Shown here: piece by piece, positions 12,563 through 63,804 of the stretch
Layout of the letters: each line of letters opens with the position of its first letter
Position numbering within the stretch: the first letter of the stretch is position 1
DNA from: Candidatus Poseidoniaceae archaeon
GTDB lineage: Archaea; Thermoplasmatota; Poseidoniia; Poseidoniales; Poseidoniaceae
Direction of reading: 5' to 3'
Assembly (NCBI GenBank): GCA_949373235.1
Contig: CASICQ010000003.1
Coordinates: 49,136-113,135 of the forward strand
Length of the DNA: 64,000 nucleotides
Notes under the pieces: generated by a model
Told to the model about the DNA's origin: nothing
The model's input: only the letters and a program-made list of their open reading frames with translations
Database searches by the model: none
Made by a program: the position numbers and the translations under genes

Positions 12563-12620
12563 GAAGAACTTACAGAAGTGTTAGCGAGGTAAAATATACT
12601 TCATCGCATTGTTAAATTAC

Positions 12621-27600: not shown

Positions 27601-27852
27601 GAAGCGTGAAGCACCTTCGGCTTCAATTGAAAGCAAACGATCTTTCGCTGCTGTGCCTGCGAGGAGGGTTTTACCCTTTCCAGATTCTGCAAGCCAACCG
27701 ACAATCCTTCCAGCACGGACCAGTCGATGGCCAGCAGGGGTTTTCCTACGTCCAATCCAGGTGCTGATTACGCCGTGGTCAAAAGGCTGAATTATTCCGT
27801 CATCAACCGAAATGGCTTCTTCGATTGGGGTTCCTTGTGGTAGGTTAAACAT
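24682..27852 (-). CDS. Giant coiled-coil protein with N-terminal Roadblock/LC7-like segments and an acidic Pro/Ala-rich C-terminus
   Basis: The N-terminal region has VRGAVAIDQGLLIDSVGDLPNDAETLAREI (Roadblock-like) and a P-loop-like AESGKGKT. About 500 aa of heptad-rich sequence follows (ELEKEKATVENRLNEANAAATAAQ...). The C-terminus is rich in E/D/P/A. Confidence 0.6.
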   Translation of the reverse strand: MFNLPQGTPIEEAISVDDGIIQPFDHGVISTWIGRRKTPAGHRLVRAGRIVGWLAESGKGKTLLAGTAAKDRLLSIEAEGASRFIAQSYSLAGLGSVAEVLPEAFEHPADRQGLLPRGDALQRLMSRDLSSVLQVLVGRDTVRGAVAIDQGLLIDSVGDLPNDAETLAREIHGSLSAMAISVMDEGIDPSASHWTMHHEDGALLLAQSGDASLGVWTEANADHARIISAVAGILDGEFGAIGASGGPIPDGFVLREGRGGPDAILSMLSAAMHEEVTGHLQSGQSSTAVSVVLARGIPVGVSAPQSGTMEEAMLTFTDSTRVLKLHRLPSGSIVSRDSGTIEGFTLDHFQDLLVTLRTRSESRRANLTSKLNELYGFETGMEHLRTQRAGASFTETVAVVSGGLGGEASQPLAVDAGLRRRLEAADHRIDELEKEKATVENRLNEANAAATAAQIVAREAKETRAESTTSLEEAHSKHNTMQVELAQSKASSEQAENRAERLVRRVNELEHQVSQRAAELAKALGDASSSETLRTAIEDMSLKEAALNAELNTHSQQLSSIRQQSEDDERRLQVLQEQVAATRERHARAQAEVLLLDEKIKTNTSELSAIESEAKASRRRSEEDRNRLATDEARQAQVQAELRELMDERRHILRELGDLGARRGHAEAELASLIERAEALSEAHEAAVADIQEAERLRARLAEEPLAQALLDDAQTFDGLGPVLERLEHARALGYSVTLLDRAVERGLQVIQSTVDHVAATPRHLLSSEVMTLLERQVPQTAGAVRGLARWSVQQRLEHQLGETVGHVVLDLEHLLEDYDRSITMLRRLRNVLEQLVRLGAPPEEVEALLNNCTRPEALPSIAKSTRQLIQVALDDIYLEADQRDAGEAVALEDTARVLEELITQLDASGLADGVPRGMLWEFQRDGLLPYERDSVPASQRTPVEVNMIATMESTLAGEVPVSLDAAVEVAVADEQGWEEMPIPVDAGTNSVDETPPESPSIEPTSDLDGSDERAALEAELAQLDASWEHRKEPAPEAAPDPALAALEARLSGLDL

Positions 27853-32894: not shown

Positions 32895-35447
32895 TTAGAG
32901 ATCGATGAGCCCTTTGGCCTTGATCGACTGGAAATCCATTCCGCCTGGGAAACCGAGGTCGACAGGCATACCACCAACCGTGACGATGATGCCAGTGAGA
33001 TGAAGATGAAGACCAACTGGGAAGGTTGAGGGATCGACCTTGGACAACATCTTCCATCCGTTCTGCCCTTTTTTAGAGGCGATGGTAAGTTGATTCGAAT
33101 CACCATGGAGGAACCAAGCATTCGCCCTCCAAGCATGTTGTTTAAGCCCCTTTTTGTGGAAGGCTGGAGGGGGCGCTACGACGTGGACTTTGCTCCAATA
33201 CTCATCGATGCTCTGCTCGGATTCTGTAATCCATTCCAATTCGGTTAATTCGCTTGGGCAAACTGGAGTCAAGCCCATTCGGGACAAATGGCCAAACAAA
33301 GCCCTCAGGTGCGGATGTCGGCCATGTTCGGCCAGCATGGTTTCCGCTGTTGCCACTGCGGTGTTCACTCGACCTGCATCAAGGTGCAACAAGCATCGAA
33401 CGACTTCCCCGTGAACCCATAAATCAATTTCGTTCGTTTTAATGAAACGCTCAAGCAAATCAAGAGCATCTTCGCTTTCTCTCGCCAAGCGCATTCGGGC
33501 GATATCGCCCAGCAAAAAGAGCCGCCCTGCTGGAGAGTCGACGTACTTCAGATCGCTTCTGCTTGTACCCGTTTGAAACCGCTTGACAAGGTCTATGTTT
33601 CGGCGCATGATGCTGTCCATAGACAACTGAGGCTTGAAACGGTCATCGAGTGGTTTTAATTTCGTGCTGAACAACGAAGCAGCCCATTTAATTCGGACGG
33701 TCTCGATGTTATCATCAGGCAGCAGTGGCAGTCGAGGCCTCGCTTCTGCAAAATCTCGTTGTGCCAAACTTGCGGCTGCAAGAATCAATCGGGCCAATTC
33801 TGCTTGCTTGCCCCCCTGGTATGCAATCAGTGAAATAGCGTTTTCTTCGGCATCGTTCCATCGGCTGAAACCAGCGTACAGCGTCATAACCGCAGCCGTT
33901 TTACGACCGAGGCTGACGGCGTCGAGATCCTTACCGTGACCCTGCAGGACTGTATCGAGTTGTTTCAGGGCTTTGACCCATTCATCTTGAGCCACCAAAG
34001 TGGTAAGTGGTTGCTGCTTGAGGTAGATGATATCTTCCATTTCGGTGAACTGTTGCCGTTCTTCTCCAACAGCAGCATCAAAGGTAATGTCTTCAATCTT
34101 AGAGCCGACTCGAAGCGAACTTACCCAGATGGCTAGGAAGGCAATTTGACCACCCGAAGCCAACATCCACGTTAATTCTTCAAGTCCTTCTTTTGTGAGC
34201 ACACTGCAAACTGTCGATTCCCATGTGCCGCATTGAGTGGTTTGAGGAAGAAAACTTGAATCCCAAAATGTAATCATGGCAAGCGCCAAGAGAAGCATGG
34301 ATTGACCGGCGAAGCCAGTGAAGCAAAAATTCAGAACCTTTGCTTGTTGGGAGCGTTCAGCCCTAAGCAAGCGGCTGTCTGCCAATTTAATTCCACCCTT
34401 CCCCGATACATCCTGCACGTTCAAGAACAGGATGTGTGCAACTTCGGAGACAAAGAGAAAACCGATGATGGCCACGTTGAGCAAGAGGAACAGAAGCACC
34501 ATAGAAACAATTGGGACCCGAATGCCATCGATTGGAATGTAAGAAAAGAGCTCGATTAAACCGAAACCAAGCAAACCACCTTCCTCCATGAAGGTTTCTT
34601 GAGGCCTATACTCTGGAAGGTTGAGCACGCGGTCTGAGTGAACCAATAAGTTCGAATCCACCAACAACACAAGGAGGGAAAGCAATGTGTTGAGCGCAAC
34701 AAAGGGCATAATGATAAGGTTGAAATTAACAAATTGTGCTAAGATTTGCTGTCGAGCGTTTGGAGCGTGATTATGGAAAGGTGAAATTTCCCCAATGGCG
34801 GTCTTTTTTGATGATTGGCGAAGGGCTTGCCATGATGACCCGAGGATACGTCCGTAGGCGAGCGCCGAAGGGGAAAATAGCGTTAAAGAAGCAATGCTGA
34901 ACCGTCTAGAATCGGATACGCCGGCATGGCCTAAAGCCATGTAAAGACCACACACAACGGCCAACCAAAACAAAAGCAGGTAGACATAATTGTAAGTGCG
35001 CGCCAAACTTGAACTTTGAAGGGTGGCTCGATCTTGTCGAATTGGTTTCAGAACTTGCGTTCCCAAGGAAGATGCACTCGACACAAGGGCGGGCAAAGCG
35101 ATGAACATCAAGGCAACAGAAAGCGAAGGTGTGTGGTACCCAGAAGAAATATCAAATTGAGTGAGAACGAACTCAAACAAGAGGATCAAAACCCCAACAA
35201 GGGCGAAGAGGTATGTTATGACTCCGAACTTCATGCCTGGAGCGCGCAGCAATTCACGAGCATCGGTCACTGTGTGCGTCACCTGATGGACTTCGTAGGA
35301 TAATTCTCCTGTTTCAAAAGCGACTTGCAATCCACGCAACTGGCGGGGAACAATTTTGGCCCAAAACATCCATGCCGTCAATCCTGCCAGCAAGAGAGGG
35401 ATGATGGCAACAGAAGGAAATCCGTCGATGATAGGGGGTGCTGCCAT
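32895..35447 (-). CDS. Large polytopic integral membrane protein (850 aa), hypothetical
   Basis: There are more than 12 hydrophobic segments. No recognisable catalytic motif was seen. Confidence 0.45.
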   Translation of the reverse strand: MAAPPIIDGFPSVAIIPLLLAGLTAWMFWAKIVPRQLRGLQVAFETGELSYEVHQVTHTVTDARELLRAPGMKFGVITYLFALVGVLILLFEFVLTQFDISSGYHTPSLSVALMFIALPALVSSASSLGTQVLKPIRQDRATLQSSSLARTYNYVYLLLFWLAVVCGLYMALGHAGVSDSRRFSIASLTLFSPSALAYGRILGSSWQALRQSSKKTAIGEISPFHNHAPNARQQILAQFVNFNLIIMPFVALNTLLSLLVLLVDSNLLVHSDRVLNLPEYRPQETFMEEGGLLGFGLIELFSYIPIDGIRVPIVSMVLLFLLLNVAIIGFLFVSEVAHILFLNVQDVSGKGGIKLADSRLLRAERSQQAKVLNFCFTGFAGQSMLLLALAMITFWDSSFLPQTTQCGTWESTVCSVLTKEGLEELTWMLASGGQIAFLAIWVSSLRVGSKIEDITFDAAVGEERQQFTEMEDIIYLKQQPLTTLVAQDEWVKALKQLDTVLQGHGKDLDAVSLGRKTAAVMTLYAGFSRWNDAEENAISLIAYQGGKQAELARLILAAASLAQRDFAEARPRLPLLPDDNIETVRIKWAASLFSTKLKPLDDRFKPQLSMDSIMRRNIDLVKRFQTGTSRSDLKYVDSPAGRLFLLGDIARMRLARESEDALDLLERFIKTNEIDLWVHGEVVRCLLHLDAGRVNTAVATAETMLAEHGRHPHLRALFGHLSRMGLTPVCPSELTELEWITESEQSIDEYWSKVHVVAPPPAFHKKGLKQHAWRANAWFLHGDSNQLTIASKKGQNGWKMLSKVDPSTFPVGLHLHLTGIIVTVGGMPVDLGFPGGMDFQSIKAKGLIDL

Positions 35448-44161: not shown

Positions 44162-45733
44162 TCAAGCACTGATCCATCGGTAACGGCGGGCGCCCTCTTG
44201 GACACCCTCTTCCCCGATTTCAACCAAGGCGAACTCACCTTGTGGTGTGACGACGCTTTCATCCTGCAATCCCTTGTGCAGGTTTTCATAGGTCACATGG
44301 TCAATCGCCATGCGTCCTGCAAGGCGTTCAAAGAGATGCCAGCGAGAAACTACTTCTCGCCATCGAGGACTCACTTTGCCTTCAAACACCTTGGCTTTGG
44401 CGCCTGAACCATAGCCACACAGTCCGAACAAGGTGTTGTCAAGGTTGCAATTCTCTTCCAAATCCGACTCAAAAGTCGACATGAGGGCGAGGAAAATAGA
44501 GCCCGTGTATTGATTGCCAATCAAGCTGCTCGCCCGCTGGCCCTTTTCAATTCGGCTTTCGTGGAACGCAAGGTATTCTGGAGTTTTGGAGATTGCGCGC
44601 CGATAACCGTCCATTGCTTTTTCCCAGATTTCAATGATTTGAGGGTCTTCCGAATTGTGTTCTGCTGGCATTGGTCCAAGTTGTTCTGCCATGTGTTCCC
44701 ACATCTCGGTTTTTTCTCTGTCGTGACGAAAAATATCAGGGAACATGCGCTTGGCTTGGAAGGCATAGGGGAGGTGCATGATGATCCTCGACCATTGTTC
44801 GGTCAGCCTCTCGTCCTCAGCATGCGTGTAACGGCCTTGCCGTTCTGCTTTCTCTGCAAAGTTGTGGAAGGCTTGACGGACTGCAGATTGGTAGCAGCGG
44901 TTGGAATACTGCCCATCGAAAATAGGCTCGTCTCGGTGGACGCTAACGCTGGTTTCACCGTGAGAGAAAATACCGAGTTTGCGGACGGTTGATTCCGGCA
45001 AATGTCGTATCATGCGTTCAACAAGACCTTTCTTCATCGTTTGACCCGTTTCTTGTGCCAGTTGGAGAACATTTGTGATCACTGAACGAAGGGTCACTTC
45101 ACGCCGAGGCTTGAAGAAATCGTGGACTGGGGTTGTTGAAACACCAATGCAATCAGGTATTTCCAGCAACCGAGGGTTGCGGCGAATGAGCAACGCTCCG
45201 CCACCTGCACCCTGGGTGTATTCTCCGGAAGATTCGAGAGCGTATTTTGCGTTGTCTGAAAAAATGACAATGCCAACTCGCTCGTCGTGTTCGGTCGAAC
45301 GAGCAACCCAGTCTAAGGTCGTGTGAAGCGCATCGACTGCCCCAATGCAAGCAAACGTCATGTCGACCACGTCGCAGTTCCTGAAGCAGGCCGAGCCATA
45401 TCGCTCTTCATAGCGCTGTGTGAGCATATCGACGATGTAGGTTGCAGTTGGTTTGGCACCGTCTAAAGCAGACTCGGTTCCGAGGTACATTCGTCCAACG
45501 GTGTTTGGGTCCAATCCGTTGCGATCAATGATTTGCATAACCGCCATTGCCCCCATAGTGGCTGTGTCTTCGTGAACATCGGGAATGGCCATGGCTTCAA
45601 GACCAAGTCCTTTGTTGAGTTTTCCAAAATCTGCACCCCGCAGTTCAGCGAAATCCCTCATGTCCATGTAGAGACGCGGGAAATGAATTGCAATGTCGTC
45701 GATACCAACGCAAATATCCTTGTCGGTTCCCAT
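44162..45733 (-). CDS. hmgB: Hydroxymethylglutaryl-CoA synthase (eukaryote/haloarchaeal-like long form)
   Basis: VGIDDIAIHFP, GTESALDGAKP, the catalytic-Cys context DMTFACIGAV and a C-terminal YGSGAKA segment parallel HMGCS motifs. Confidence 0.75.
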   Translation of the reverse strand: MGTDKDICVGIDDIAIHFPRLYMDMRDFAELRGADFGKLNKGLGLEAMAIPDVHEDTATMGAMAVMQIIDRNGLDPNTVGRMYLGTESALDGAKPTATYIVDMLTQRYEERYGSACFRNCDVVDMTFACIGAVDALHTTLDWVARSTEHDERVGIVIFSDNAKYALESSGEYTQGAGGGALLIRRNPRLLEIPDCIGVSTTPVHDFFKPRREVTLRSVITNVLQLAQETGQTMKKGLVERMIRHLPESTVRKLGIFSHGETSVSVHRDEPIFDGQYSNRCYQSAVRQAFHNFAEKAERQGRYTHAEDERLTEQWSRIIMHLPYAFQAKRMFPDIFRHDREKTEMWEHMAEQLGPMPAEHNSEDPQIIEIWEKAMDGYRRAISKTPEYLAFHESRIEKGQRASSLIGNQYTGSIFLALMSTFESDLEENCNLDNTLFGLCGYGSGAKAKVFEGKVSPRWREVVSRWHLFERLAGRMAIDHVTYENLHKGLQDESVVTPQGEFALVEIGEEGVQEGARRYRWISA

Positions 45734-52126: not shown

Positions 52127-52882
52127 TCAGGCATTGCCCCGGGTGGTCTTGCAACCAACGCCCCATTCGCTTTCAGTCATTGCTTTCCTTGTCGCTTCGA
52201 GCAGCGCATCCTCCGGGGTTGGAACAGCGCGGATCCCCGCTGTAAAGGCGATGGCCATACTGGCCTCCTTGTGAGCCCACTTTACCAATTGAATTTTTGA
52301 TTTTTCAATTGATAAGTATGACCGTTCTACTCCAATTGGAATTTCAATTTTCCTCGGGTTCAGGTGCATGCCTAGGCCAAGGGATTTTTGGATTGCTTCT
52401 TTGGAAACCCACGCTTCGATGGCGCAAGAAGGGTGAGCGAGTAAAAACTCCAGTTCTGCTCCTTTGGCCATCATGGAAAAGGCGTTTGGTTGGATGCCTC
52501 GGTCGCTCGGCTCTCCGTCCAAACCAACGCACCATTCAGGCTCGGCAATGGCCACATAAGCCCACCCGCCGCTGTGACAGAGGCTGATCGAAGGCAGCGG
52601 CGTGTTCTTCCAAACGCCTGCGATGTAGGCGAGGTAAGGAGCTCGATGTTTCGTACGTTCAACGCTCACCAGCGTGGCATCAATGCCCCACAGGGCGAGG
52701 GCTTCTTGCAACAACCAGCGGCCTGTGAGGTGCTCATCGCATCGCTTCTGAACGACAAACGTAGCCACTTCATCAGCATCAGCCAAAACCACATGTTCAG
52801 GTTCATGCGTTTGGACTGGACTGCGTAAAACCAAGCAGGTTGGCAAATCATCCCCGGGTGGTTGGAGATGTTCAATTGTCAT
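52127..52882 (-). CDS. 4'-phosphopantetheinyl transferase, Sfp/PfaE type
   Basis: SISLCHSGGWAYVAI (SxSHS-like), CVGLDGEP (Mg-binding GxDxE-like) and WVSKEAIQKSLG (WxxKEAxxK) are present. It lies 12 nt downstream of the megasynthase. Confidence 0.7.
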   Translation of the reverse strand: MTIEHLQPPGDDLPTCLVLRSPVQTHEPEHVVLADADEVATFVVQKRCDEHLTGRWLLQEALALWGIDATLVSVERTKHRAPYLAYIAGVWKNTPLPSISLCHSGGWAYVAIAEPEWCVGLDGEPSDRGIQPNAFSMMAKGAELEFLLAHPSCAIEAWVSKEAIQKSLGLGMHLNPRKIEIPIGVERSYLSIEKSKIQLVKWAHKEASMAIAFTAGIRAVPTPEDALLEATRKAMTESEWGVGCKTTRGNA

Positions 52883-52894
52883 TTTTAGGCCTCA

Positions 52895-54712
52895 TCAACG
52901 CTCAAGCGTGAAGGCTTCTTCATCCGAAACCGGAGCCATGCCCTTGAGGCGTAGACCCTTGAGCGCCAAAACAGGTGCGTCATCTTCTCCGACAATCACC
53001 ACATCATGCACCGTAACACCGGCCTCTTCAACCGAAGTTCGGAGGCTCCGCATACGAAGCAGTTCATCTCGTTCTGGCACCCGAAGCATGGAAGACCATT
53101 CGATGCCTACGGGGAGGGACGAGAAACCTTCGCTCTCCATAGCCACCAATCCCGCATTTTGGAACCCTGCCTCGATGAGCATGGGAAGCGCTTCAAGCAA
53201 GACTGTTTCACCTTCTGATTCATGCGCAAACTGGTCGGTTGCAGGCAATTGATGCCGCATCAAAGCAATGCCGTCTGCCCCTGGCATCGATTCGTCACCG
53301 ACGCCACGCAGAACACCTCCATGCGACTGGAATCGAGGCCCGTGGAAGTACCTGTCATAGATGAAGGAAGGTTGTTCCGCAAGTTCACCAGGCGCGGGAA
53401 TTCCAAGATTCGGGAGCGCTTCCACTTCCGCTTGCAAGAACGGCCAAAGGTCGTCGCCTTTTTCCACGAGGCGTACTGAAGCCTTGTGGTGCTCTCGTTC
53501 ACCAAACACCTCGCCTTTAGAATTCGTAAGATCTGACACGAGGGTGCATTTCACCCATGTGAGGTCGTTTTCCGTCCGATCAAACTCAGCGGTGACTCGC
53601 ACGGTCATCGGTCCTTTGAGCAACTTCACAGGCAAACCGAATTCGACGGATTCAAATCCAGCTAAACAGGTCGAAGGACGCATCAACAACGCCACTTCAG
53701 CGAACATTTCCAACGCCATAACCCCGGGGTGGTACGGAACGCCCTCAATCGCGTGGTCGATCAGGAAGGGGTGGTCCTCTTCCGACAAGGTTGATTGTAC
53801 AGTCAGTGATTGATCTTCTCGGCAGGCAAGCACTTTGTCGATGAAAGGAAAACGTTGTGGGTCGGCAATGATGCTTGCCATTTCAGCAGGTAGACGGAGG
53901 GGGGCTTCTCTAAAGGCATCGAAATGATCCATCTCTCCTAGGGATCCACATCCAATGACGCGACGCTTGCCTCCTGCAAGGGCTTCATCCACAAAGATGT
54001 TCACGCCTTCATCCACTGAAAGGGTGTCAATTCCTGCGGCTTCAAAGACCGCTTCAATTGAGCCTCTTGTCGCCATACCAACGTCCCGCCACCCAGTCCA
54101 ACCAATGGCTACAGCACGGCAGGTTCCAGAAGCGGTGAGCCGTGCCATTTCAGCATCGAGAACACTGTTTGCTGCTGCATAGTCTGTTTGCCCTCCGTTG
54201 CCGAACCGTCCGGCAACGCTGGTGAAGCATGCTGCGAAACGAGGGCTTTCGGCTCCTGAGGCCAAGCATGCGGCAAGCATGCACTGCCAACCATCCACCT
54301 TGACTCGAACCACCTTGTCGAACACATCGTAGTCCTTGTCCGCAACAAGTTTCGAATCCTCTAAACCAGCACCGTGAATCAAGCCCGTAATCGGACGATT
54401 GAGGCTTTCTCCGACCGCTTGCATTGCTTCACGGTCCATGACGTCGACGGGGTGGTATGAGGCAGAGTTGCCCGTGGACTCAATTGAGTTGAGGGTATCA
54501 TACACATCTCGACTGCGAGTGAACTTTTGCCAAGCCTTGTTCCACTCAACCATGGTGACCTTGCCTGATTCGCTTGCCGCAGCAAGACGTTCGCGCAAAG
54601 CCATCCGTTCAACCTCAAGTTCTGGTTCGCCCCAAGTGATCCATGTTTTGGTTTGTTCAATGAGGTGAGAGCGACCAAGAAGGGCGAAATGAGCTCCTGC
54701 ATTGAATGACAT
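52895..54712 (-). CDS. C-terminal fragment of the type I FAS/PKS megasynthase: catalytic ketoreductase subdomain plus PKS-type dehydratase
   Basis: The KR subdomain (about 53918..54712) shows the HGAG...KVDGW...YAAANSVLD catalytic Tyr/Asn region. The DH domain (about 52913..53860) carries the HxxxGxxxxP motif LIDHAIEGVPYHPGV. The reading frame is contiguous with the upstream 2364-aa ORF if one base is removed at the C5 run 54721..54725. Confidence 0.8.
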   Translation of the reverse strand: MSFNAGAHFALLGRSHLIEQTKTWITWGEPELEVERMALRERLAAASESGKVTMVEWNKAWQKFTRSRDVYDTLNSIESTGNSASYHPVDVMDREAMQAVGESLNRPITGLIHGAGLEDSKLVADKDYDVFDKVVRVKVDGWQCMLAACLASGAESPRFAACFTSVAGRFGNGGQTDYAAANSVLDAEMARLTASGTCRAVAIGWTGWRDVGMATRGSIEAVFEAAGIDTLSVDEGVNIFVDEALAGGKRRVIGCGSLGEMDHFDAFREAPLRLPAEMASIIADPQRFPFIDKVLACREDQSLTVQSTLSEEDHPFLIDHAIEGVPYHPGVMALEMFAEVALLMRPSTCLAGFESVEFGLPVKLLKGPMTVRVTAEFDRTENDLTWVKCTLVSDLTNSKGEVFGEREHHKASVRLVEKGDDLWPFLQAEVEALPNLGIPAPGELAEQPSFIYDRYFHGPRFQSHGGVLRGVGDESMPGADGIALMRHQLPATDQFAHESEGETVLLEALPMLIEAGFQNAGLVAMESEGFSSLPVGIEWSSMLRVPERDELLRMRSLRTSVEEAGVTVHDVVIVGEDDAPVLALKGLRLKGMAPVSDEEAFTLER

Positions 54713-57700
54713 TTCTGCTACCCCCGATCACCGATGCAGCCGTGACGCCAGATCCGCCGCCTGAAACCAACCAAGTGTCGTCGGATTGCAAGGGCGTACG
54801 TTCTTCAACCAAATCTTCAGCAAATGCCACAAGCGCCCACCGGCGTTCGTCTCGGTCAAGGCCAATTTCAACCTCGCCCGCAATGTTGAACACGTCATGA
54901 TGAATCAAAGCGGCTGCTTGTGCAGGATCTAGAATGAGTTCAGGATGAACATCAAGGGCACGGCAGCGGAGGTGCGGTTGTTCAAATGCATAGGATTTCG
55001 TCACACCGGAGGCAGCGCATTGAACCGCATTGAACCGCTCACCAATGTTTCCATGTCGTCCATCTAAGGCGGTAATAGAGGCTACAATTCCAGCATCGAG
55101 GTTTGAAAGCTGTGCGTCGAGGCCTTGCAGCAAGGAAAAGTATCCTTGTGCGGCCAGAGCAATCTGAGATGAAGGATGCCCATCTTCCGCCCACGAAGCG
55201 CTGGCCAACTTGAGCGGCGACATGTGAATCAAGGCAGAGATGTTGTGTCCGTTCAAGGCTTGACTCACCGCAGCGATGTGTTCGGGGTTACCGGGATCTG
55301 CACGGTAGACGACTCTCTTGCCTTCTTGCTGGACAGACATGTCCCGAATGTTGCTCTCGAAACCGATGCGAATCGCATCCATGCCGTCCGCTTCAAGGAG
55401 TTGACAGAATACCTCTGCGATGCCCCAACCGTCGTCTGTAACAACGGCTGTTCCCTTCAAAGACATGGGGGCATCTCGACCCGGTGCTGCTTCAACTTCA
55501 ATTTGCCAGCGTCGTGATTCAACGGTTGTGGTCGTTGAAACCAAAGAGGGAGCGGTTGATGCCTCCGTTTGGCTTGGAGGGGCGGGTGAACCAGTGGATG
55601 CATCGCCCTTCATGCGGAGGATGTAGGCAGTAAAATGGTTCAGCGTAGGATGATCAGACAAGACGAAGTCTTCGTCCAATGGAAGGTCGAACACCTCTCG
55701 TACATCACCCATAATTTCGGCTTGCTTCACGGTGTCTATGCCCAATTCTCCCTCGAGGTCTTGATCCATTTCAATGAAATCAGCTGGGTAACCCGTGTGC
55801 TTAACGACAATCTCAACCAATTGGTCATCAACTGTGCCGTCTGTTGCCACACCTTTCGGTTTTGAGGTTGTTGGCTCACTTGGGGCAGGTGCTACCGGGG
55901 CAGGTGCTACCGGTGCTGGTGGAGAGGGCGCCGGTGCTGCCTTGGCTGGGCTCGATGGTGCTTCGCCTCCTTGCATGCGATGGATGTAGGCAATCATGTG
56001 ATTCAAGGTTGGATAATCGGATAGAACAAAATCTTCATCAAGCGGTAAACCAAATCGATCGCGTATGTCCGCCATAATTTCGGCTTGCTTCACCGTGTCA
56101 ATCCCCAATTCACCTTCGAGGTCCTGGTCGAGTTCAATGAAATCAGCCGGATAACCGGTGTGAGTCACGACAACTTCGACCACAGTGGCCCGCAAATGCT
56201 CTTCATCAACCGGGGAGGCTGGAGGGTGTGGGGCTGGGGAAGCAAGAGGTTGCGATTCAGCGACTGGCTGTGGTGCTTCCTCAGAAGGCAGTTGGGTCGG
56301 TGCAGCAGGTGCTGGAACGGGAGCAGTGGTTCCACCGCTCATTCGTTGAATGTAGCCAATCATGTGATTCAAGGTCGGATAATCAGAGAGCACAAATTCT
56401 TCATCCACAGGGAGGTTGAACCGTTCACGAATATCAGCCATGATCTCGGCCTGCTTGACCGTATCAATGCCCAACTCACCCTCTAGGTCCTGATCCAATT
56501 CAACAAAATCAGCTGGGTAGCCCGTGTGATTGACAACCACATCGATGACTACGGTGACGGCATCGCCTTCAGCGACAGCCGACGGGCTGAGTGATTGTAC
56601 TGAAGCCGGTGCTGGTGTTGGAGCAGGGAGGCTCGGCTGAGGAGCGGGGACTGAAACTGGTGGAGGAACGGGGGTTGGGACTGGGTTTGGCACAACCGAG
56701 GGTTTGCCTTCAAAAGGCGCTGTGATGGGCCAAGGATCCCCTTGAACGCCGCCATGAAGGTTGTTCTCACCGTCCACATAAGCAACCAACTTCTGATCCA
56801 GCAAACGCATGACTACGTCTTCATTGCCCGCTAAGCGACGGTTCCATGCCAGGAATTTCGCCCCGTCAATCCGTTCACCAACAACGGGCCAGCGGCGAAC
56901 AAGTGAAAGCGCCATTTGAGACCCAAATCCAGCAGCGAACCGAAGGCCGTACTTGAGGTTTGGATAATCGCCACCTTTTGAGAGGTTGAGGTTACCCAAC
57001 TCAGGGTCGACTTCCTTGTGGTTTGCAATCGGAGGTATCCTTCCAGTTTTCATGCCGTGGAACATGCTGGCGTCTTCAATTCCAACTGCCATTGGATGAC
57101 CAGTGAAGCCTTTTGTGTTCGCAATGACAAGTTTGTCCGTGCTGTGTGTGAAGGTGTCTCGCAACGCCCGAACTTCGGATTGCGCCGACCCACCCCGAGC
57201 AGGGGTGTAGGTCTCATGGGAGAAAAACACGGTGTCAGAAGCGATTTCATGGCGGTCGATGCCCCATTGTTGTTCCATGGAGGTGACGAAGTTGTCCACC
57301 GTTTCAGCAACGTGATCAACATCAAGGCGAGTGCCGTGGAAGGCGGAATTGGCGGTGGTCGCACCGAGCAATTCTGCAATTGGTTGAACACCACGCTCTT
57401 CCGCTTCTGAATTGCGTTCAACAACGAAGGCTGCTGCGCCCATGCCGAGGATCAATCCATTGCGCCTCCGGTCGAATGGCAATGCTGTTTCTTCGACCAC
57501 GTTGTGGGTTGCAGCAGCTCCTGATGCGGCGAAGCCCCCACCAATCCATTCCCACATGTCATCGCCCGTTACGTCATCCGCCGAGATGATAACAACACGA
57601 TCGACGCGATCGGCGTTGAGCCAATCTTCCGCAACGCCAAACGCTGCTGTGGCCGATGCACACGCTAGATTGATGATTGTGTTTGGACCTCGAATACCAG

Positions 57701-60700
57701 AGTATTGAGCGAATTGTGAATGGCCCATTGCTAGAGTTTGGAACAGGTACCGTCGATCAAAGCGCCCCTCACCGTCGTCGCCGTTTGCTTTCGCATGTTT
57801 CAGGGCCATTTGGAAGCCAGGGAAACACGAAGCGAAGACGATTCCTGTTCGATCCCGGGTGTGCTGAGGGACTTGCCAGTTTCGAATCAAGCGCAATCCG
57901 CCCTTGCCGATTTGTTCAACGGGAGTCAATGGAATCGCTGCATCTCTTAGGGCAAGGAGCCCAGCGGCCATGCCGAGTTGTGTCGTTATGTCCCAAGCCA
58001 GTATGACCTTTGGATCAATGCCAAATTCTTCTGCAAGATCAAAAGCACCTTTCACGCCTGCGAGTTGGGGCACGTCGCCAAACGCTGTGGCTTGGTCCAT
58101 GTTCACTGAACCATCTCGCCCTTTGATCAAGCGAACCAGATTCTTGTCCAGTAAGCGTTGCTTGTAATCATCGGTGACTTCTGAGATGCAAGTTTCACCG
58201 CGAACAAGGCGCTCAAAAGTATCTTCATTGAACACACTCTCCCCGCCAGGAAGTCCAAGCGACACGCCCGTTACGACAAACGGATCTGCACGGCGCCGGC
58301 TCATTGGGTCATGGCCTGTTGCAGGGGCATGACCTGCAGAAGAAGGAGCGGCCATTCGAGTCATTGAGGACTTCGGTGACCAACCAGCAGGAGGTGTTGC
58401 AATCCAACGGGCTACGTCCGCAACCGTTTTGGCGCCGCTAACGTCCACTTCCGGGTCGGTTTTCGCCTCGGAAACCACAGTTTGGAACAGAGAGGCAATG
58501 CTTGCTTCCGACATGCCAAGGCCAAGGCGTAAATCGACCATTCCGTGGCAGAAACGAGCGGGATAATTCGTAAGGGAAGCAATCCGGTCTCCAAGGTAAG
58601 CATCCTTGGCTTTTTGAGCGGCAATCTCCGGATCGAGGTTCGGGGAGCTCGAGGCTTGCTGAACATGCACCACTTGAGGTGTTCCAGTTCCAGCAGCAGA
58701 AGGCAACGGGCGGGCTCGCGTGCGCAAATCTTCACCCGATGAGGTGGCTCGATGTGCTTCAATTGGCCCGGCACGGAACGCTTCGGTCAGTGCGGCTGAT
58801 GTTGGCGCCGGCCAATTCATCGGACGTCCTGCGAGCGCCATCGTAGCGAGGGCGGTCAAAAAGGATGCGATTCCACCTTGTTTGGGGTGGTTTGTCATGA
58901 CTGGCAAGTGAGGCTGATCTTCAAGAATCTGAACCGCAAACATGCTCAGAGCGCGCTTGGGCCCGACTTCGATGAACGCTCGTGCTCCGGCTTCATACAT
59001 GGTTTGAATTTGAGCGGTCCATTCAACTGAGGAAGCCATTTGCAAGGCTAACTTGCTGAGAACTGCGGATTTCGAAGCCTCCAAATCCTCGCTGTCTGAA
59101 GGGTTCATTGGGTAGAATTCCCCGTCGACATTGGCCGTGATTGGGATGGTGGGCCAACGAATATCAAGCCCTTCTAAGAACCTGCGAAGAGGTTCGTTGG
59201 CTGGTGCGACAATCCTCGAATGGAAAGCGTGGGAGGTGGCCAATGGCATCGATTGGAATCCTTTGGCTTCAAACTCAGCCATTGCGGCCTTCACCGGTTC
59301 TGTTTCACCAGCGATGACGGTCATCTTTGGAGAATTTTTATTCGCTGCGATGACGTAACCGTCGACAGCGTTGATGATTGTTTCAACCTCTGAATATGGC
59401 GCACTAACGCTTGCCATGAGCCCTTTATCGTCAATTTCTACAGCGCCCATTTCAGTTCCGCGAGCAGCTGCTGCACGAAGTGCTCCGTCCATATCCAAAA
59501 TCCCTGCAGCCATCAAGGCAGCGTATTCGCCGAGCGAATGGCCAGCGACCATATCGGGGTGAATGCCGTGATCGTTGAGCGCTCGCTCGATGGCCAGGTC
59601 AGCGGTCAACATGGCAGGCTGAGTGTATTCTGTCTGCTTTAGTTTGTGTTCAGCCTCTGCCTGTTCTTCTTTCGAGAGGTTTGACCGAAGTACGAAACTT
59701 GACAGGGTTTCACCTTCAAGCACCTCGATCATGGTCTCATCGGCCTTGGCCCAAACCTGCTGAACCGCAGTGTAGCGTTGATGCAGATCATGGGTCATAC
59801 CGACGTATTGACTGCCTTGTCCAGGGTACATGTGCGCAACCTTGGCTTTAGCATGAAGCGGAGCGTCTTTGGTGATCAAAACGCCTTGGGCTTGTAGGAA
59901 GCCCCACTTGTCTTCATCGTCCATGGCCTTGAGAGCCAATTCAACTCGCTTGTTGAACTCGGCCCAATTGGTGGCAATAACGGCCATCCGCATTGAAGCG
60001 CTTGAATCAAAGGAACTTGATGCAGCATAGAGAGCATAAGACAGACGGATTCCTTTCGGGTCTTCATCGAAGGTGGCTCCTTCGAAGGAAGTTGTCGTGA
60101 GGGCCTGCCTTAGGCCTTCGAGGGATTCGGCAGAGAGCAGAAGCATGCCACCTTCAACCGCTTTGAGTTGTTCGTGAGTCATGCTTGGTGCCGCAGAACC
60201 ATCGAGAATGGACGGGGCGGAAGGGGTTGTTGAAGAAGAGGTTTCAATCGCAGCATAGGCTTGCCATCGAAGATCCCATTCGCGCGCCAACGGAGCGTGA
60301 TATTCTGGCTCATAGCCCTCAAGAGCGATGTGGAAGTTCGTACCGCCGAAGCCAAAGGCGGAAATGCCTGCCCGTCGCGGGTGGTGTTCAGGTCGAGGCC
60401 AATCGCGGGCTTCGGTTGGAACAAAGAAGGGAATCTCACTCCATTCAACGGTCGGGTTTGGCGTTTCAAACCCTGCGGATGGGGGAATGGTGCGGTGGTG
60501 AAGCGCCATAACGGTCTTCATGATTCCTGCAATACCAGCAGCGGCTTTGAGATGGCCAATCTGAGATTTTATCGAGCCGACAGCAACATGGTCTCCACTT
60601 GGGAACCCGTCCCAAAGCAAAGATAACGTCGACAATTCGGTCGCATCTCCCACCTTTGTCGAGGTGCCGTGGGCTTCCACGAGTTCCACTGTGCTTGCAG

Positions 60701-61751
60701 GATACCCCGCTTGATTGTACGCTCGGGCGATGGCCTGAACTTGGCCCCGCTGGCTTGGTGCAGTGATGCCCTTGCCGCGCCCATCGGAGGAACCACCTAT
60801 GCCACGGATGACTGCGTGAACCTCATCGCCATCTGCCAAAGCATCGCTCAGGCGTTTCAACAGCAACACACCAGCCCCCTCACCCATCACAAAGCCGTTT
60901 GCTCGGGCATCAAATGGGGTTGAATGAGTCGGTGATAAAGCGCCAATGGCACTGAACTTCGAAAATGTGGCCGGATCCATCGTACGGTCTGTAGCCCCTG
61001 CGAGCATGAGGTCCACCTGACGGGTTTGCAGCAATCGGCAAGCATCCAAAACAGCCGCCATGGAAGACGCACAGGCGGCGTCCATTGCGTGGTTGGGGCC
61101 TTGTAAATCGAGTAGGTTTGCGACTCGGCCTGAAACCACATTGGCCAATTCCCCAGGCATTGTGTCTTCATCGATTCGTGGCGTACCCTCAACCAACTCT
61201 TCGGTGAACGCTTCGATGTTCTGTTCTGCAAGCCCATGCTTCTTAGCCAGCTCTTTGGTGTGGTTGGACCACACGCGAATGTTGGAAAGGTTGCGGTTCT
61301 CACCGCCGAGCGCATTTGCGAAAACAACGCCACATCGAGTGCGATCGATGTCTTTTGTTTCGCCATCATAGCCGGCTTGCTCGATGGCATCTGCTGCTAC
61401 AGAAACCGCCCAAAGTTGGCATGGATCAATTTGCGGGAGGGTGCCTGGTGGCTGCCTCCATCGACGCCAGTCGAATTCGAACCCTTCGACAAGAGCTCCG
61501 ATTTTGGCGTAGGTGAACCCTTCTTTGCTGTCGCCAGGCCCACCTTCTCGATAGAAATGGTTGATTGGACCCGGCCATCGGCCTTCCTGTATCTCTCGAA
61601 TACTGACTTTGGAATCGATGATGTTCTGCCAGAAGGCTTCGATGCTTGGCGCGTCAGGCATCAGGGCTGCCAAACCGATGACTGCAATCGGTTCGAACGG
61701 TCCTTGATCAAGCCCTTCGCAGGGTTTGCCATTTGCTGTTGTGATCGTCAT
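54657..61751 (-). CDS. Type I FAS/PKS megasynthase, PfaA-like: KS - malonyl-AT - second KS - 3 tandem ACP-like domains - KR structural subdomain and start of the KR Rossmann fold
   Basis: KS1 (about 60327..61694) has GPNHAMDAACASS, EAHGTSTKVGD and KSQIGHLKAAAG. AT (about 58947..59834) has GQGSQY, GHSLGE and the malonyl-type SHAFHS. KS2 (about 56892..58289) has NLACASATAAF, FHGTRLD and GFTGHPMAVG. Three repeats of HTGYPADF(V/I)E(L/M)DQDLEGELGIDTVKQAEIM are PfaA-style ACPs with Thr at the Ser position. The ORF ends within the KR GGGSG loop because of a frameshift. Confidence 0.85.
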   Translation of the reverse strand: MTITTANGKPCEGLDQGPFEPIAVIGLAALMPDAPSIEAFWQNIIDSKVSIREIQEGRWPGPINHFYREGGPGDSKEGFTYAKIGALVEGFEFDWRRWRQPPGTLPQIDPCQLWAVSVAADAIEQAGYDGETKDIDRTRCGVVFANALGGENRNLSNIRVWSNHTKELAKKHGLAEQNIEAFTEELVEGTPRIDEDTMPGELANVVSGRVANLLDLQGPNHAMDAACASSMAAVLDACRLLQTRQVDLMLAGATDRTMDPATFSKFSAIGALSPTHSTPFDARANGFVMGEGAGVLLLKRLSDALADGDEVHAVIRGIGGSSDGRGKGITAPSQRGQVQAIARAYNQAGYPASTVELVEAHGTSTKVGDATELSTLSLLWDGFPSGDHVAVGSIKSQIGHLKAAAGIAGIMKTVMALHHRTIPPSAGFETPNPTVEWSEIPFFVPTEARDWPRPEHHPRRAGISAFGFGGTNFHIALEGYEPEYHAPLAREWDLRWQAYAAIETSSSTTPSAPSILDGSAAPSMTHEQLKAVEGGMLLLSAESLEGLRQALTTTSFEGATFDEDPKGIRLSYALYAASSSFDSSASMRMAVIATNWAEFNKRVELALKAMDDEDKWGFLQAQGVLITKDAPLHAKAKVAHMYPGQGSQYVGMTHDLHQRYTAVQQVWAKADETMIEVLEGETLSSFVLRSNLSKEEQAEAEHKLKQTEYTQPAMLTADLAIERALNDHGIHPDMVAGHSLGEYAALMAAGILDMDGALRAAAARGTEMGAVEIDDKGLMASVSAPYSEVETIINAVDGYVIAANKNSPKMTVIAGETEPVKAAMAEFEAKGFQSMPLATSHAFHSRIVAPANEPLRRFLEGLDIRWPTIPITANVDGEFYPMNPSDSEDLEASKSAVLSKLALQMASSVEWTAQIQTMYEAGARAFIEVGPKRALSMFAVQILEDQPHLPVMTNHPKQGGIASFLTALATMALAGRPMNWPAPTSAALTEAFRAGPIEAHRATSSGEDLRTRARPLPSAAGTGTPQVVHVQQASSSPNLDPEIAAQKAKDAYLGDRIASLTNYPARFCHGMVDLRLGLGMSEASIASLFQTVVSEAKTDPEVDVSGAKTVADVARWIATPPAGWSPKSSMTRMAAPSSAGHAPATGHDPMSRRRADPFVVTGVSLGLPGGESVFNEDTFERLVRGETCISEVTDDYKQRLLDKNLVRLIKGRDGSVNMDQATAFGDVPQLAGVKGAFDLAEEFGIDPKVILAWDITTQLGMAAGLLALRDAAIPLTPVEQIGKGGLRLIRNWQVPQHTRDRTGIVFASCFPGFQMALKHAKANGDDGEGRFDRRYLFQTLAMGHSQFAQYSGIRGPNTIINLACASATAAFGVAEDWLNADRVDRVVIISADDVTGDDMWEWIGGGFAASGAAATHNVVEETALPFDRRRNGLILGMGAAAFVVERNSEAEERGVQPIAELLGATTANSAFHGTRLDVDHVAETVDNFVTSMEQQWGIDRHEIASDTVFFSHETYTPARGGSAQSEVRALRDTFTHSTDKLVIANTKGFTGHPMAVGIEDASMFHGMKTGRIPPIANHKEVDPELGNLNLSKGGDYPNLKYGLRFAAGFGSQMALSLVRRWPVVGERIDGAKFLAWNRRLAGNEDVVMRLLDQKLVAYVDGENNLHGGVQGDPWPITAPFEGKPSVVPNPVPTPVPPPVSVPAPQPSLPAPTPAPASVQSLSPSAVAEGDAVTVVIDVVVNHTGYPADFVELDQDLEGELGIDTVKQAEIMADIRERFNLPVDEEFVLSDYPTLNHMIGYIQRMSGGTTAPVPAPAAPTQLPSEEAPQPVAESQPLASPAPHPPASPVDEEHLRATVVEVVVTHTGYPADFIELDQDLEGELGIDTVKQAEIMADIRDRFGLPLDEDFVLSDYPTLNHMIAYIHRMQGGEAPSSPAKAAPAPSPPAPVAPAPVAPAPSEPTTSKPKGVATDGTVDDQLVEIVVKHTGYPADFIEMDQDLEGELGIDTVKQAEIMGDVREVFDLPLDEDFVLSDHPTLNHFTAYILRMKGDASTGSPAPPSQTEASTAPSLVSTTTTVESRRWQIEVEAAPGRDAPMSLKGTAVVTDDGWGIAEVFCQLLEADGMDAIRIGFESNIRDMSVQQEGKRVVYRADPGNPEHIAAVSQALNGHNISALIHMSPLKLASASWAEDGHPSSQIALAAQGYFSLLQGLDAQLSNLDAGIVASITALDGRHGNIGERFNAVQCAASGVTKSYAFEQPHLRCRALDVHPELILDPAQAAALIHHDVFNIAGEVEIGLDRDERRWALVAFAEDLVEERTPLQSDDTWLVSGGGSGVTAASVIGGSRNVIQCRSSFRPSWSLSPH
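55608..56579 (-). repeat. Three tandem coding repeats (363-366 nt period) encoding ACP-like carrier domains joined by Pro/Ala-rich linkers
   Basis: The repeat units are about 70-aa identical-motif blocks separated by PAP-rich linkers. The copies are diverged at synonymous sites. The 'Ser-position' codons are CGT/CGT/GGT on the plus strand, which read ACG/ACG/ACC (Thr) on the coding strand, at 56460..56462, 56094..56096 and 55731..55733. Confidence 0.85.
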
Positions 61752-61760
61752 GCGCTCACT

Positions 61761-62555
61761 TCACTGATCCATGATGCTCTGAGGCACCATGGTGATCGAA
61801 TAACCGCCATCGACGTATATGCACTGGCCTGTAACGCCGCTTGCGAGAGGGCTTGCAAGCCAAAGCGTTGCTCCCGCTACATCGTTTTGATTGACGTTAC
61901 GGCGCAATGGTGCATTGGCTTCGACGTGGTCAAGGATTTTGTCAAAACCCGGAATGCCACCTGCGGCAATGGTGCGTATGGGGCCGGAAGAGATGGCGTT
62001 GACGCGATGACCTTCCGGACCGAGGTGGCACGCAAGTTCCCTCGTCCAGCATTCCAATGCAGCCTTAGCCATCGACATGATGCCATAATTAGGAACATAT
62101 CGGGTCGAAGCGGCGTAGGTTAGCGTGATGGTGGACGAACCAGGGTTGAGGTAAGGCAGCGCATGCTTCAAGCAACGTTGCAGCGAATTTGCTGAAATGG
62201 TCATGGCCGTGTTGATATCAGCATCTTCGACGAAGAGAATGGGGCGATCAAAGCAACTTCGAGGCGCAAAGCCGATCGCATGAATGAGAATATCAGCCTT
62301 GAGCCCTGGATGTTCTGCTGCAAAGGCGTCGAAAAATTCCTTTGTTGTTGCGTCCTCTGCCACATCAAGCGGGTAGAATCCGCCAATTTGTGGTAATTTG
62401 TCTTTGAGTTGGAAAATTCGGCTCATGAATCGCTTCTGATACCCGAGGTAAAGCGTCACACCAGCGGCCGCCAACTGTTGACAAATCGCCCAAGCGATGG
62501 AATCCTCGCTCGCCACACCAAACACGAAGGCGGTCTTTCCTTGCAATTGTAGCAT
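61761..62555 (-). CDS. fabI: Enoyl-[acyl-carrier-protein] reductase, FabI-like (SDR family)
   Basis: LQGKTAFVFGVASEDSIAWAICQQLAAAGVTL parallels the FabI N-terminus [21 protein letters not shown]. The FabI-type Tyr/Lys catalytic spacing (YxxMxxxK region AASTRYVPNYGIMSMAKAALE) is present. It lies 9 nt upstream of the megasynthase. Confidence 0.8.
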   Translation of the reverse strand: MLQLQGKTAFVFGVASEDSIAWAICQQLAAAGVTLYLGYQKRFMSRIFQLKDKLPQIGGFYPLDVAEDATTKEFFDAFAAEHPGLKADILIHAIGFAPRSCFDRPILFVEDADINTAMTISANSLQRCLKHALPYLNPGSSTITLTYAASTRYVPNYGIMSMAKAALECWTRELACHLGPEGHRVNAISSGPIRTIAAGGIPGFDKILDHVEANAPLRRNVNQNDVAGATLWLASPLASGVTGQCIYVDGGYSITMVPQSIMDQ

Positions 62556-62670: not shown

Positions 62671-63804
62671 TTACAAATCATCGAACATATCGTCGAATTC
62701 GTCGGCCTTTGAAGGACCGTCGAGGTCTGAAAAGAAATCGTCTAAATCGTCATCCAAAGCTGGCGATTCAACTGAAGCGGGATATTCGGGAAGATCGATG
62801 GCGACAGGCACCTGAATCGCTGAAGCGGCTGCAGTGCCCCGAGAGGAGCGCTTGGTGGCTTTTGCTAAAACCACGACCAAAAGCAGAACGAGGATGACCC
62901 CTCCTGCGATTGCAGCGTATTGAAGCACCTGATCCTTGTCTATTTCCTCAAGGTTACCGCCAAGCGAACTTGATTGACCGGGAGCAACGACGTTGAGTTG
63001 AACTGTAATTTCGCTCGACGCTGCGCTGCTGTCAACGCTGCTTTCGGCTTGGAAAAGCACAGGGAGGCGGATGTCTTCAGCGAGATCCGAAGGTGAGCGT
63101 ACCGTCAAGGTTCGGAGGCTCGAAGTGCCTTGGTAGGCCACTTCTTCGCTCACAAATGTGCCTGCTGGGAACGAGAAGCCTGCGGCAACCAAGTCCGCTT
63201 CATTGGCGATACGAATCACAATGTTATCGTCATCGTTGCCTTTGTTGGTGAATTGGAAGGTGAAATCGACTTCTTCTGATGTAGAGAGTTCACGGGTGGT
63301 TTTGTCGGACATGATCAATTCAACCATTCCATAGGAAGCAATTGAGAAATCACCAAGATAGGATTGGTTGACCACCCATGGGCCATCCGGAAGTTCCCCG
63401 TATGGAAGGCCGTTCCAAGAGGTCACTTTGGCTTCGATTTCAAATTCATGAGTGAGGGAAGCTGGGAGTCTTGTTTGGCCCGAGAACACGATGTTGAAAC
63501 TCTCTTCATCGCCGGCAGCAAGAGTAAATTCATCTTCACTGAGCGTCATTTCTACGTTGACGCCATCCCATTCGATTTTATCGACCTTGACGACTTCACT
63601 TGCCGAGGTTGGGTTGGTGACCGTGCAGACAAGGACAGCATCCTCGTAGAAGTTTGGATGAACGTTCATCACCGGGTCTGAGCCACAGTCCAACTCGACC
63701 GCAGGAAGCGGTGAGCCTTGTGCTGCGGCGCCAGTTGAGAGCGCAGGCAAGACGAATAAGGTCAACACGAGCAACGCGGTGAATGCCCTACCAAATCGTG
63801 CCAT
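62671..63804 (-). CDS. Secreted surface protein with C-terminal TM anchor and poly-acidic cytoplasmic tail, hypothetical
   Basis: A signal peptide FTALLVLTLFVLPALSTGAAAQG is present. The C-terminal helix AIAGGVILVLLLVVVLA is followed by KATKRSSRG and a DDDLDDFFSDLD...DEFDDMFDDL tail. Confidence 0.55.
   Translation of the reverse strand: MARFGRAFTALLVLTLFVLPALSTGAAAQGSPLPAVELDCGSDPVMNVHPNFYEDAVLVCTVTNPTSASEVVKVDKIEWDGVNVEMTLSEDEFTLAAGDEESFNIVFSGQTRLPASLTHEFEIEAKVTSWNGLPYGELPDGPWVVNQSYLGDFSIASYGMVELIMSDKTTRELSTSEEVDFTFQFTNKGNDDDNIVIRIANEADLVAAGFSFPAGTFVSEEVAYQGTSSLRTLTVRSPSDLAEDIRLPVLFQAESSVDSSAASSEITVQLNVVAPGQSSSLGGNLEEIDKDQVLQYAAIAGGVILVLLLVVVLAKATKRSSRGTAAASAIQVPVAIDLPEYPASVESPALDDDLDDFFSDLDGPSKADEFDDMFDDL

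Follow-up and report, generated by a model that had tools for sequence, protein, structure and literature searches.

A Type R-like megasynthase operon with two ketosynthases and threonine-bearing carrier proteins in a Marine Group II archaeon

Archaea of Marine Group II (MGII; Poseidoniales) are among the most abundant planktonic archaea. Here, we report that a 64,000-nucleotide stretch of a Candidatus Poseidoniaceae genome (the window; GenBank assembly GCA_949373235.1, contig CASICQ010000003.1, positions 49,136 to 113,135 of the forward strand) carries a three-gene operon of an MGII archaeon, fabI-megasynthase-phosphopantetheinyl transferase (PPTase), and that this locus probably belongs to the bacterial Type R family of secondary-lipid, fatty acid synthase (FAS)-like synthases, of which it would be an archaeal member. 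The megasynthase has one ketosynthase (KS1) before and another (KS2) after an acyltransferase (AT), followed by three tandem acyl carrier proteins (ACPs), a ketoreductase (KR), and a dehydratase (DH). The best explanation, which we consider probable, is that a single ACP array serves two condensing domains in a FAS-like synthase that works iteratively. Computation showed the identity, order, and fold of the domains, the catalytic residues, conservation, synteny, and the distribution of the family.

Type R was defined by Shulse and Allen in 2011 (PLoS One 6:e20146, PMC3098273), who sorted pfa-like gene clusters into 20 types; it consists of one pfaA homologue with the order KS-MAT-CLF-ACP(3-6)-KR (MAT, malonyl acyltransferase; CLF, chain-length factor), followed by a PPTase gene, and its product is uncharacterized. 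An earlier reading of the window from its sequence alone (the sequence-only reading) had held that the arrangement matches no known architecture. Type R fits it exactly, and the KS-AT-KS-ACPn-KR layout itself is not new, having been catalogued in 2011. The worth of the locus lies instead in its archaeal setting, in a second ketosynthase apparently mislabeled as a CLF, and in carriers that bear Thr.

KS2 retains a complete set of catalytic residues. In a HMMER alignment to Staphylococcus aureus FabF, its motifs NLACAS (Cys1364), SHETYT (His1512), and TKGFTGH (Lys1547 and His1552) fell on the catalytic C/H/K/H, and the Cys, both His, and the Lys were invariant in all 96 homologues covering the domain, as well as in 19 of 19 aligned to FabF. 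Compared with Escherichia coli FabF (NC_000913.3), residues C163, H303, T305, T307, E314, K335, H340, and F400 were kept. When the region was scanned alone, the Pfam ketoacyl-synt N-terminal domain was matched over its full length (51 bits) and the C-terminal half weakly. An AlphaFold2 model (38-sequence alignment; mean pLDDT, 88; pTM, 0.92) had FabF structures as its best PDB fold matches (template modeling [TM] score, ~0.88 on the target; E value, 2e-29). The sequence-only reading had claimed that both ketosynthases keep the active-site Cys and His motifs and that KS2 is not a CLF-type pseudo-ketosynthase. This was borne out: the residues are present (Cys227/His361/His400 in KS1 and Cys1364/His1512/His1552 in KS2), on careful alignment those of KS2 lay on those of FabF, and the region at 56.9 to 58.3 kb was modeled with a FabF-like, thiolase-like ketosynthase fold.

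The affinities of the two ketosynthases differed. KS1 contained the Pfam ketoacyl-synt N- and C-terminal domains and KAsynt_C_assoc (the ketosynthase C-terminal extension) and scored 369 bits over positions 8 to 466 of the PfaA model TIGR02813, with type I polyketide synthase (PKS) models next. Its PDB matches were PKS ketosynthases and 6riw "ORF10" (252 bits), which we take to be the PfaC KS-CLF of a polyunsaturated fatty acid (PUFA) synthase. KS2 matched only FabF-type models, at 122 bits against a cut-off of 494, which places it below the equivalog level of TIGR03150; no PfaA or PKS model was matched at an E value of ≤1e-5 in the curated-model scan. The best 60 PDB sequence matches of KS2 were FabF, KasA, FabB, and a few type II PKS ketosynthases, with no PfaC-type KS-CLF chain among them. 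KS1 and KS2 were 24% identical, and in a neighbor-joining distance tree, each lay closer to E. coli FabF than to the other (the reference sequences were E. coli FabF and FabB only, ketosynthase class being otherwise taken from curated-model scores and PDB sequence matches). Judged by identity, tree placement, and model and PDB matches together, KS2 is neither a recent duplicate of KS1 nor PfaC-like, whereas KS1 is PfaA/type I PKS-like. A fusion of PfaC-like and PfaA-like functions, which the sequence-only reading had offered, was thus not supported.

Within the family, KS2 differs from FabF in a fixed manner. The substitutions G304E, D311A, D265A, T270R, G402S, and I108F (E. coli FabF numbering) are family invariant, N404 is replaced by I, M, or V, and HETYT, A311, and GFGS stand in place of the canonical HGTxT, D311, and GFGG; KS1 is canonical at these positions, save T270 (Gly) and I108 (Met or Leu). 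In KS2 and the ACPs, 98 to 99% of residues were identical to those of the closest relatives (L001 and L002), against 90 to 96% in KS1; identity to bacterial homologues was 50% for the ACP, 49% for KS2, 45% for the AT, 42% for KS1, and ~30% for the KR and DH. KS2 is the best-conserved catalytic domain of the megasynthase, and the pattern of conservation argues for function. It looks competent for decarboxylative condensation, yet belongs to a distinct lineage with remodeled gating-loop and near-active-site residues.

Two condensation activities on one carrier array would be the most economical reading, because KS2, with Cys and both His invariant, is not a CLF-type pseudo-ketosynthase and because no other catalytic domain is as well conserved. 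We infer iteration, a division of labor between the ketosynthases, a saturated product, and Thr-linked phosphopantetheine. The AT, whose HAFH motif is a malonyl-specific signature in the PKS literature, would load malonyl units onto the tandem carriers, activated by the operon's own PPTase. KS1 (PfaA type) and KS2 (of a deep-branching FabF-like clade) would both catalyze decarboxylative condensations with this one ACP array, probably splitting the work by chain length or stage. Each beta-keto group would be reduced by the KR and DH of the megasynthase together with FabI acting in trans, and the long acyl chain made would be largely saturated; as there is no thioesterase, release would fall to a partner outside the megasynthase.

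Several points weigh against this mechanism. In KS2, G304E (beside the first His), D311A, and the gating-loop changes at D265 (to Ala), G402 (to Ser), and N404 fall where E. coli FabF and FabB and all KS1 domains are conserved, and such family-invariant substitutions could mean altered chemistry. The carriers have Thr in place of the canonical Ser, and their activation is assumed. The megasynthase gene is frameshifted in the window as sequenced, and no release enzyme, acetyl-CoA carboxylase (ACC), or acyl-acceptor gene adjoins the archaeal operon. No later characterization of Type R and no biochemically studied family member were found in the literature, and according to a 2026 paper, the secondary lipids identified so far number only a handful.

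An active KS2 could also hold a special role, namely decarboxylative priming (acetyl-ACP made from malonyl-ACP for KS1), early short-chain rounds alone, or a terminal transfer or condensation, which we think unlikely. Its Cys-His-His triad is that of decarboxylating ketosynthases, the operon has no separate loading domain or FabH, and the position of FabF Ile108 is an invariant Phe; in FabF, I108F presumably narrows the acyl pocket, and we take PDB 4ls6, found among the fold matches of KS2, to be that mutant. The argument from the pocket, however, hangs on one aligned position at ~21% identity, and the sequence does not separate a special role from ordinary elongation. Dedicated priming ketosynthases (KSQ) normally have Gln for the Cys.

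CLFs in the PKS literature lack the active-site Cys; because this Cys is invariant in KS2, KS2 is by its residues not a CLF. It is quite improbable that KS2 serves as a CLF-like, noncondensing partner which forms a pseudo-heterodimer with KS1 and sets chain length. The published Type R label of KS-MAT-CLF-ACP-KR (PMC3098273), the identity to KS1 of just 24%, and the odd invariant residues that KS2 has beside its active site and within its gating loops would suit that role, but it is at odds with the invariance of Cys, both His, and Lys (96/96 and 19/19 sequences), with the highest conservation among the catalytic domains, and with the lack of PfaC KS-CLF chains among the best 60 PDB matches. 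For the ketosynthase of pfaB, Shulse and Allen used a missing active-site Cys as a point in their own argument (PMC3098273); by that criterion, the "CLF" label of Type R is wrong, since the Cys is retained. Against this label, KS2 would represent a conserved third kind of condensing domain.

The proposed two-ketosynthase synthase is read from a repaired gene. As sequenced, the open reading frame (ORF) at 54657..61751 on the minus strand (2,364 amino acids [aa]) holds, by Pfam, a complete KS, an AT, a weaker second ketoacyl-synt, and three PP-binding domains, and its stop (54657-54659) lies 20 codons past the KR nucleotide-binding motif GGGSGVTAA; the adjacent ORF at 52895..54712 (minus strand) holds Pfam KR positions 37 to 180 and PKS_DH_N. 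Past a run of five G residues, three-frame reading found the KR continuing in the +1 frame, and deletion of one G gave an uninterrupted protein of 2,951 aa. The sequence-only reading had placed the whole series KS-AT-KS-ACP3-KR-DH in 54657-61751; this held for KS1, the AT, KS2, and the three ACPs, but most of the KR and the whole DH are encoded in the adjacent ORF, past the one-base frameshift.

Each BLASTN alignment to the relatives L033, L014, and L002 had a one-base gap at the G run, the extra base being absent there, and among the 30 Poseidoniales loci with the gene in full, 29 had a single intact ORF of ~2,940 aa (range, 2,876 to 3,095 aa; the sole exception, L027, ends at 2,270 aa). Because the relatives lack the extra base and 29/30 copies are intact, the stop inside the KR probably stems from a single-base homopolymer error or from a lesion that arose very recently. 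Programmed frameshifting was rejected on the same two observations. A real frameshift, which would make the gene a pseudogene in this genome and the synthase one without a working KR-DH, seems rather improbable: the window as read does have the stop and a KR split after its nucleotide-binding motif, but a single extra base in such a run is a typical sequencing or assembly error, the KR-DH codons 3' of it are fully open and 81 to 89% identical to those of L001, and the gene is uninterrupted in the other whole-gene loci, L027 excepted.

Between the AT and KS2, the sequence-only reading had seen no ACP, and an intact one is indeed missing, but a degenerate ACP-like domain lies at residues ~1055 to 1122. 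A Pfam scan of this linker gave no match, and the likeness was seen only by profile-profile and fold comparison. The Poseidoniales linker profile matched the family's ACP repeats in hhalign (probability, 90.8%; E value, 1.2e-6), pairing TNYPARF with TGYPADF and LGLGMSEAS with LGIDTVKQA, which puts a Glu at the attachment position. For a model of residues 1035 to 1150 (pLDDT, 73), nearly all PDB fold matches listed were ACPs, with weak E values (0.03 to 0.3) and TM scores of 0.6 to 0.78 on the target. This domain and an intact LGIDTVK ACP at the same place in the bacterial homologue L043 (ORF residues 1226 to 1298) would suit a relic two-module line (KS1-AT-ACP plus KS2-ACPn-KR-DH sharing the AT) rather than one iterative synthase with two equivalent ketosynthases, but this is highly improbable, as most bacterial homologues have a linker of ~80 aa without ACP similarity, the archaeal domain has no attachment residue, and a product from just two modules would be very short, so that iteration would still be required.

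The carriers of the proposed synthase have an unusual residue at the phosphopantetheine position. In place of the Ser of the canonical PP-binding motif GxDS(L/I), all three window ACPs have Thr within LG[IV]DTVK (codons at 55731-55733 for Thr2007, 56094-56096 for Thr1886, and 56460-56462 for Thr1764); in alignments, this Thr falls on the Ser that bears phosphopantetheine in PigH and in type II ACPs from the PDB. Thr was found in 201 of 201 tandem ACPs over 80 loci (L001 to L080) and, over 145 family representatives (P0121 to P0265), in 325 of 347 ACP domains (~94%), with Ser in 18. The Ser-type ACPs came from eight representatives, mostly in an otherwise identical motif (LGIDSVKQAEI), and one of these representatives, an archaeal-type relative, has a PPTase of its own downstream. 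The catalytic motifs of the window's Sfp-type PPTase are intact, with ISLCH fitting the hShxH (P1b') type. Because Ser and Thr interchange in a fixed motif and an Sfp-type PPTase with intact motifs is always linked, the pattern suggests that Thr is the attachment site in Type R-family ACPs. No report of Thr-linked phosphopantetheine was found in the literature by motif and phrase searches. AcpS is not known to modify Ser-to-Thr mutants of E. coli ACP, and Thr attachment would then be unusual chemistry. Near-universal Thr, with an occasional Ser in the same motif, calls into question the view that Ser is always the residue bearing phosphopantetheine.

The partner genes would complete the set of activities. 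The product of the upstream fabI had enoyl-ACP reductases as all 60 PDB matches listed and matched Pfam adh_short_C2 (236 bits), while its score against the best NCBIfam FabI model (223.5 bits) was below the cut-off of 391. In every Poseidoniales locus with enough flanking DNA, fabI lay just upstream and the PPTase gene downstream of the megasynthase, with identities of 79 to 96% for the FabI-type protein and 40 to 67% for the PPTase. No PfaB, PfaC, or PfaD partner was found near the megasynthase, and the window has no PfaC- or PfaD-like genes. In ~30 bacterial loci, an acyl-CoA-dehydrogenase-like gene (~555 aa) abuts the synthase start, preceded in Acidobacteria and Verrucomicrobia by genes for electron transfer flavoprotein (ETF) alpha, ETF beta, and an Fe-S CCG-domain protein; in ~17 bacterial loci, a single-chain ACC (~1,850 to 1,900 aa; biotin carboxylase, biotin carboxyl carrier protein, central region, and carboxyltransferase) follows the synthase, and the PPTase comes next. 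Since the synthase has a KR and a DH but no enoyl reductase (ER), the archaeal fabI and the bacterial dehydrogenase gene may both supply enoyl reduction in trans, as a non-orthologous displacement; the upstream slot of the bacterial gene fits that role, for which its dehydrogenase/ETF is a candidate. With an ER in trans, the system would be FAS-like and self-contained. The bacterial Type R clusters extend beyond what has been published (L044 to L080, e.g., L057:1301-6926 and L057:15556-21258), with an Fe-S CCG oxidoreductase, ETF beta and alpha, the dehydrogenase, and a eukaryote-like ACC, and in L076 the dehydrogenase appears to be fused to the synthase.

A scan for the family in one genome per GTDB species found at least 594 matching stretches, of which the 41 best (69 to 98% identity) all came from Ca. 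Poseidoniales, Poseidoniaceae, or Poseidonia or from equivalently named metagenome-assembled genomes (MAGs), so that the megasynthase gene is present in at least 41 Poseidoniales species genomes. The next matches (47 to 53% identity) were from Acidobacteriota, Myxococcota, Acidimicrobiia, Chloroflexota, Calditrichota, Verrucomicrobiota, and others. A 1.7-kb contig labeled Poseidoniales (L042; 52% identity) grouped by identity with the bacterial matches and was left out of the 41 archaeal loci as a probable binning contaminant. The closest homologues of KS2 bear the names of Thermoplasmatota or Euryarchaeota MAG proteins. Among 1.84 billion cluster representatives (50% identity clusters), searched exhaustively, 533 proteins matched KS2 at an E value of ≤1e-30; in most of the 533, KS2 lay at residues ~1,200 to 1,700 of megasynthases of 2,500 to 4,000 aa. 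Nearly every complete archaeal or bacterial locus had the order KS1-AT-KS2-ACP(1-5)-KR-DH (L043 lacks the KR-DH, and L077 and L027 are cut short). A candidate split-gene variant (P0123; KS2-ACP2-KR-DH, 1,886 aa) was rejected, as it lies at the edge of a contig and opens with the tail of an AT. The KS1 and KS2 subtrees were congruent, with Poseidoniales monophyletic in both (neighbor joining), which fits the acquisition of the megasynthase as a whole unit in a single event.

Other genes of the window are housekeeping genes that fit an archaeal chromosome (CDC48, TrmB, a Cpn60/TCP-1 chaperonin, ThrRS, CTP synthase, and HMG-CoA synthase), and scans of the window for Rfam families and tRNAs found nothing. 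Protein identity of the megasynthase to L001/L002 is uneven (98 to 99% in KS2 and 65 to 78% in linkers, the ACP-linker region, and the structural KR), and DNA identity to L002 around the KR start is only ~71%; this probably reflects differing selective constraint, with recombination as an alternative. The "choice-of-anchor T" gene next to fabI (NCBIfam NF041740, 92 bits) keeps its position in most Poseidoniales loci and diverges fast in sequence (21 to 80% identity). The HMG-CoA synthase, with N- and C-terminal Pfam domains, adjoins chaperonin and DnaK genes and, at 523 aa, seems long for an archaeal enzyme. Six large ORFs (498 to 1,138 aa) had no Pfam match at an E value of ≤1e-5 (7214-10630, 24682-27852, 32895-35447, 31110-32888, 12609-14624, and 4162-5658).

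Table 1. Features of the megasynthase operon and neighboring genes in the window (residue numbers are those of the repaired megasynthase)
Feature	Position	Strand	Basis or remark
Repaired megasynthase gene (2,951 aa, one G deleted), KS1-AT-pseudoACP-KS2-ACP x3-psiKR/KR-DH	52895..61751	-	
KS1, PfaA/type I PKS-type ketosynthase, residues 20-490, Cys227/His361/His400	60282..61694	-	Pfam, model scores
AT, residues 641-973, GHSLGE (Ser739) and HAFH motif	58833..59831	-	Pfam, motifs
Degenerate ACP-fold domain in AT-KS2 linker, residues ~1055-1122, Glu at attachment position	58386..58589	-	hhalign, model
KS2, divergent FabF-like ketosynthase, residues 1155-1620, Cys1364/His1512/Lys1547/His1552 kept	56892..58289	-	
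Three tandem ACPs, residues ~1735-2055, ELGIDTVKQAEIM	55587..56549	-	Thr1764, Thr1886, and Thr2007 at phosphopantetheine position
Structural psi-KR and catalytic KR, GGGSGVTAA, Tyr2524 (YAAAN), frameshift-interrupted	54071..55574	-	
G5 run (minus strand), one extra base, frameshift inside KR	54721-54725	-	Three-frame reading, BLASTN
PKS-type DH, HxxxGxxxxP with His2666	52898..53953	-	Pfam, motif
FabI-type enoyl-ACP reductase, Y-x6-K	61761..62555	-	9 nt upstream of megasynthase start; likely trans ER
Sfp-type 4'-phosphopantetheinyl transferase, motifs ISLCH, GLDGE, WVSKEAIQK	52127..52882	-	12 nt past megasynthase stop
"Choice-of-anchor T" protein (377 aa)	62671-63804	-	Just upstream of fabI
HMG-CoA synthase (523 aa)	44162-45733	-	

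According to a recent preprint, archaea seem to have no complete FAS I or FAS II, and nearly all of them lack ACP and ACP synthase; in the literature, MGII has been noted in particular for its bacterial-type lipid genes. In the two main MGII comparative-genomics papers, the main text makes no mention of polyketide or acyl carrier protein, and no report of a Type R-like architecture in archaea was found in the literature, the architecture being described only by Shulse and Allen in 2011. At least 41 Poseidoniales species genomes bring a complete set of KS, AT, ACP, KR, DH, ER, and PPTase together in a single conserved operon, and archaeal fatty-acyl synthesis is therefore directly testable by heterologous expression. 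We tentatively put forward, as possible but doubtful, that MGII make fatty-acyl chains de novo by a horizontally acquired, ACP-dependent type I synthase whose carriers are phosphopantetheinylated on Thr by a dedicated PPTase. If true, this would be a carrier-protein chemistry for which we found no report in the literature and would give a concrete enzymatic basis to the mixed "bacterial-type" lipids proposed for MGII.

Compared with known systems, the locus is closest to Type R, published from Koribacter, Solibacter, Elusimicrobium, and Roseiflexus, with an ACC gene between synthase and PPTase in Koribacter (PMC3098273). The window has KS1-AT-KS2-ACP3-KR, then a PPTase gene 12 nt downstream with an hShxH motif (ISLCH), as in the Type R definition. 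Homologues of the same architecture (48 to 50% identity) occur in Korobacteraceae and Bryobacteraceae MAGs (L056, L068, L070, and L073), which we take to be the families of Koribacter and Solibacter, and the acidobacterial homologues have the order synthase-ACC-PPTase; the comparison rests on these MAG homologues. The window differs in its archaeal host, in fabI rather than dehydrogenase/ETF genes upstream, in having no adjacent ACC, and in the extra degenerate ACP. The Type R paper is silent on a C-terminal DH, on the retained Cys of the "CLF," and on Thr in the ACPs.

With PfaA (TIGR02813), the synthase shares the backbone of KS1-MAT, tandem ACPs, KR, and DH, but PfaA has no second KS, and the ORF at 54657..61751 scored 728 bits, below the cut-off of 1010; the PfaB/PfaC/PfaD partners, FabA-type DH, and PfaD-type ER of PfaA systems are lacking. 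As in the KS-CLF pairs of PfaC, HglC, and type II PKSs, two domains of ketosynthase fold would cooperate in one synthase, but in those pairs the domains lie side by side and the catalytic Cys is missing from the CLF, whereas here an AT and a linker lie between them and both catalytic sets are full; KS2 is, moreover, FabF-like and not PfaC-like. FabF (KAS II) has the fold and the Cys-His-His-Lys site of KS2, which differs in being embedded in a megasynthase, in its score of 122 against 494 bits, and in its invariant G304E and D311A and altered gating-loop residues. A split by chain length or stage between two ketosynthases would resemble that reported for KS-A and KS-C in PUFA synthases by Hayashi et al. 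That two elongating ketosynthases with different chain-length ranges can serve one ACP pool is an established principle, known from FabB/FabF and KasA/KasB.

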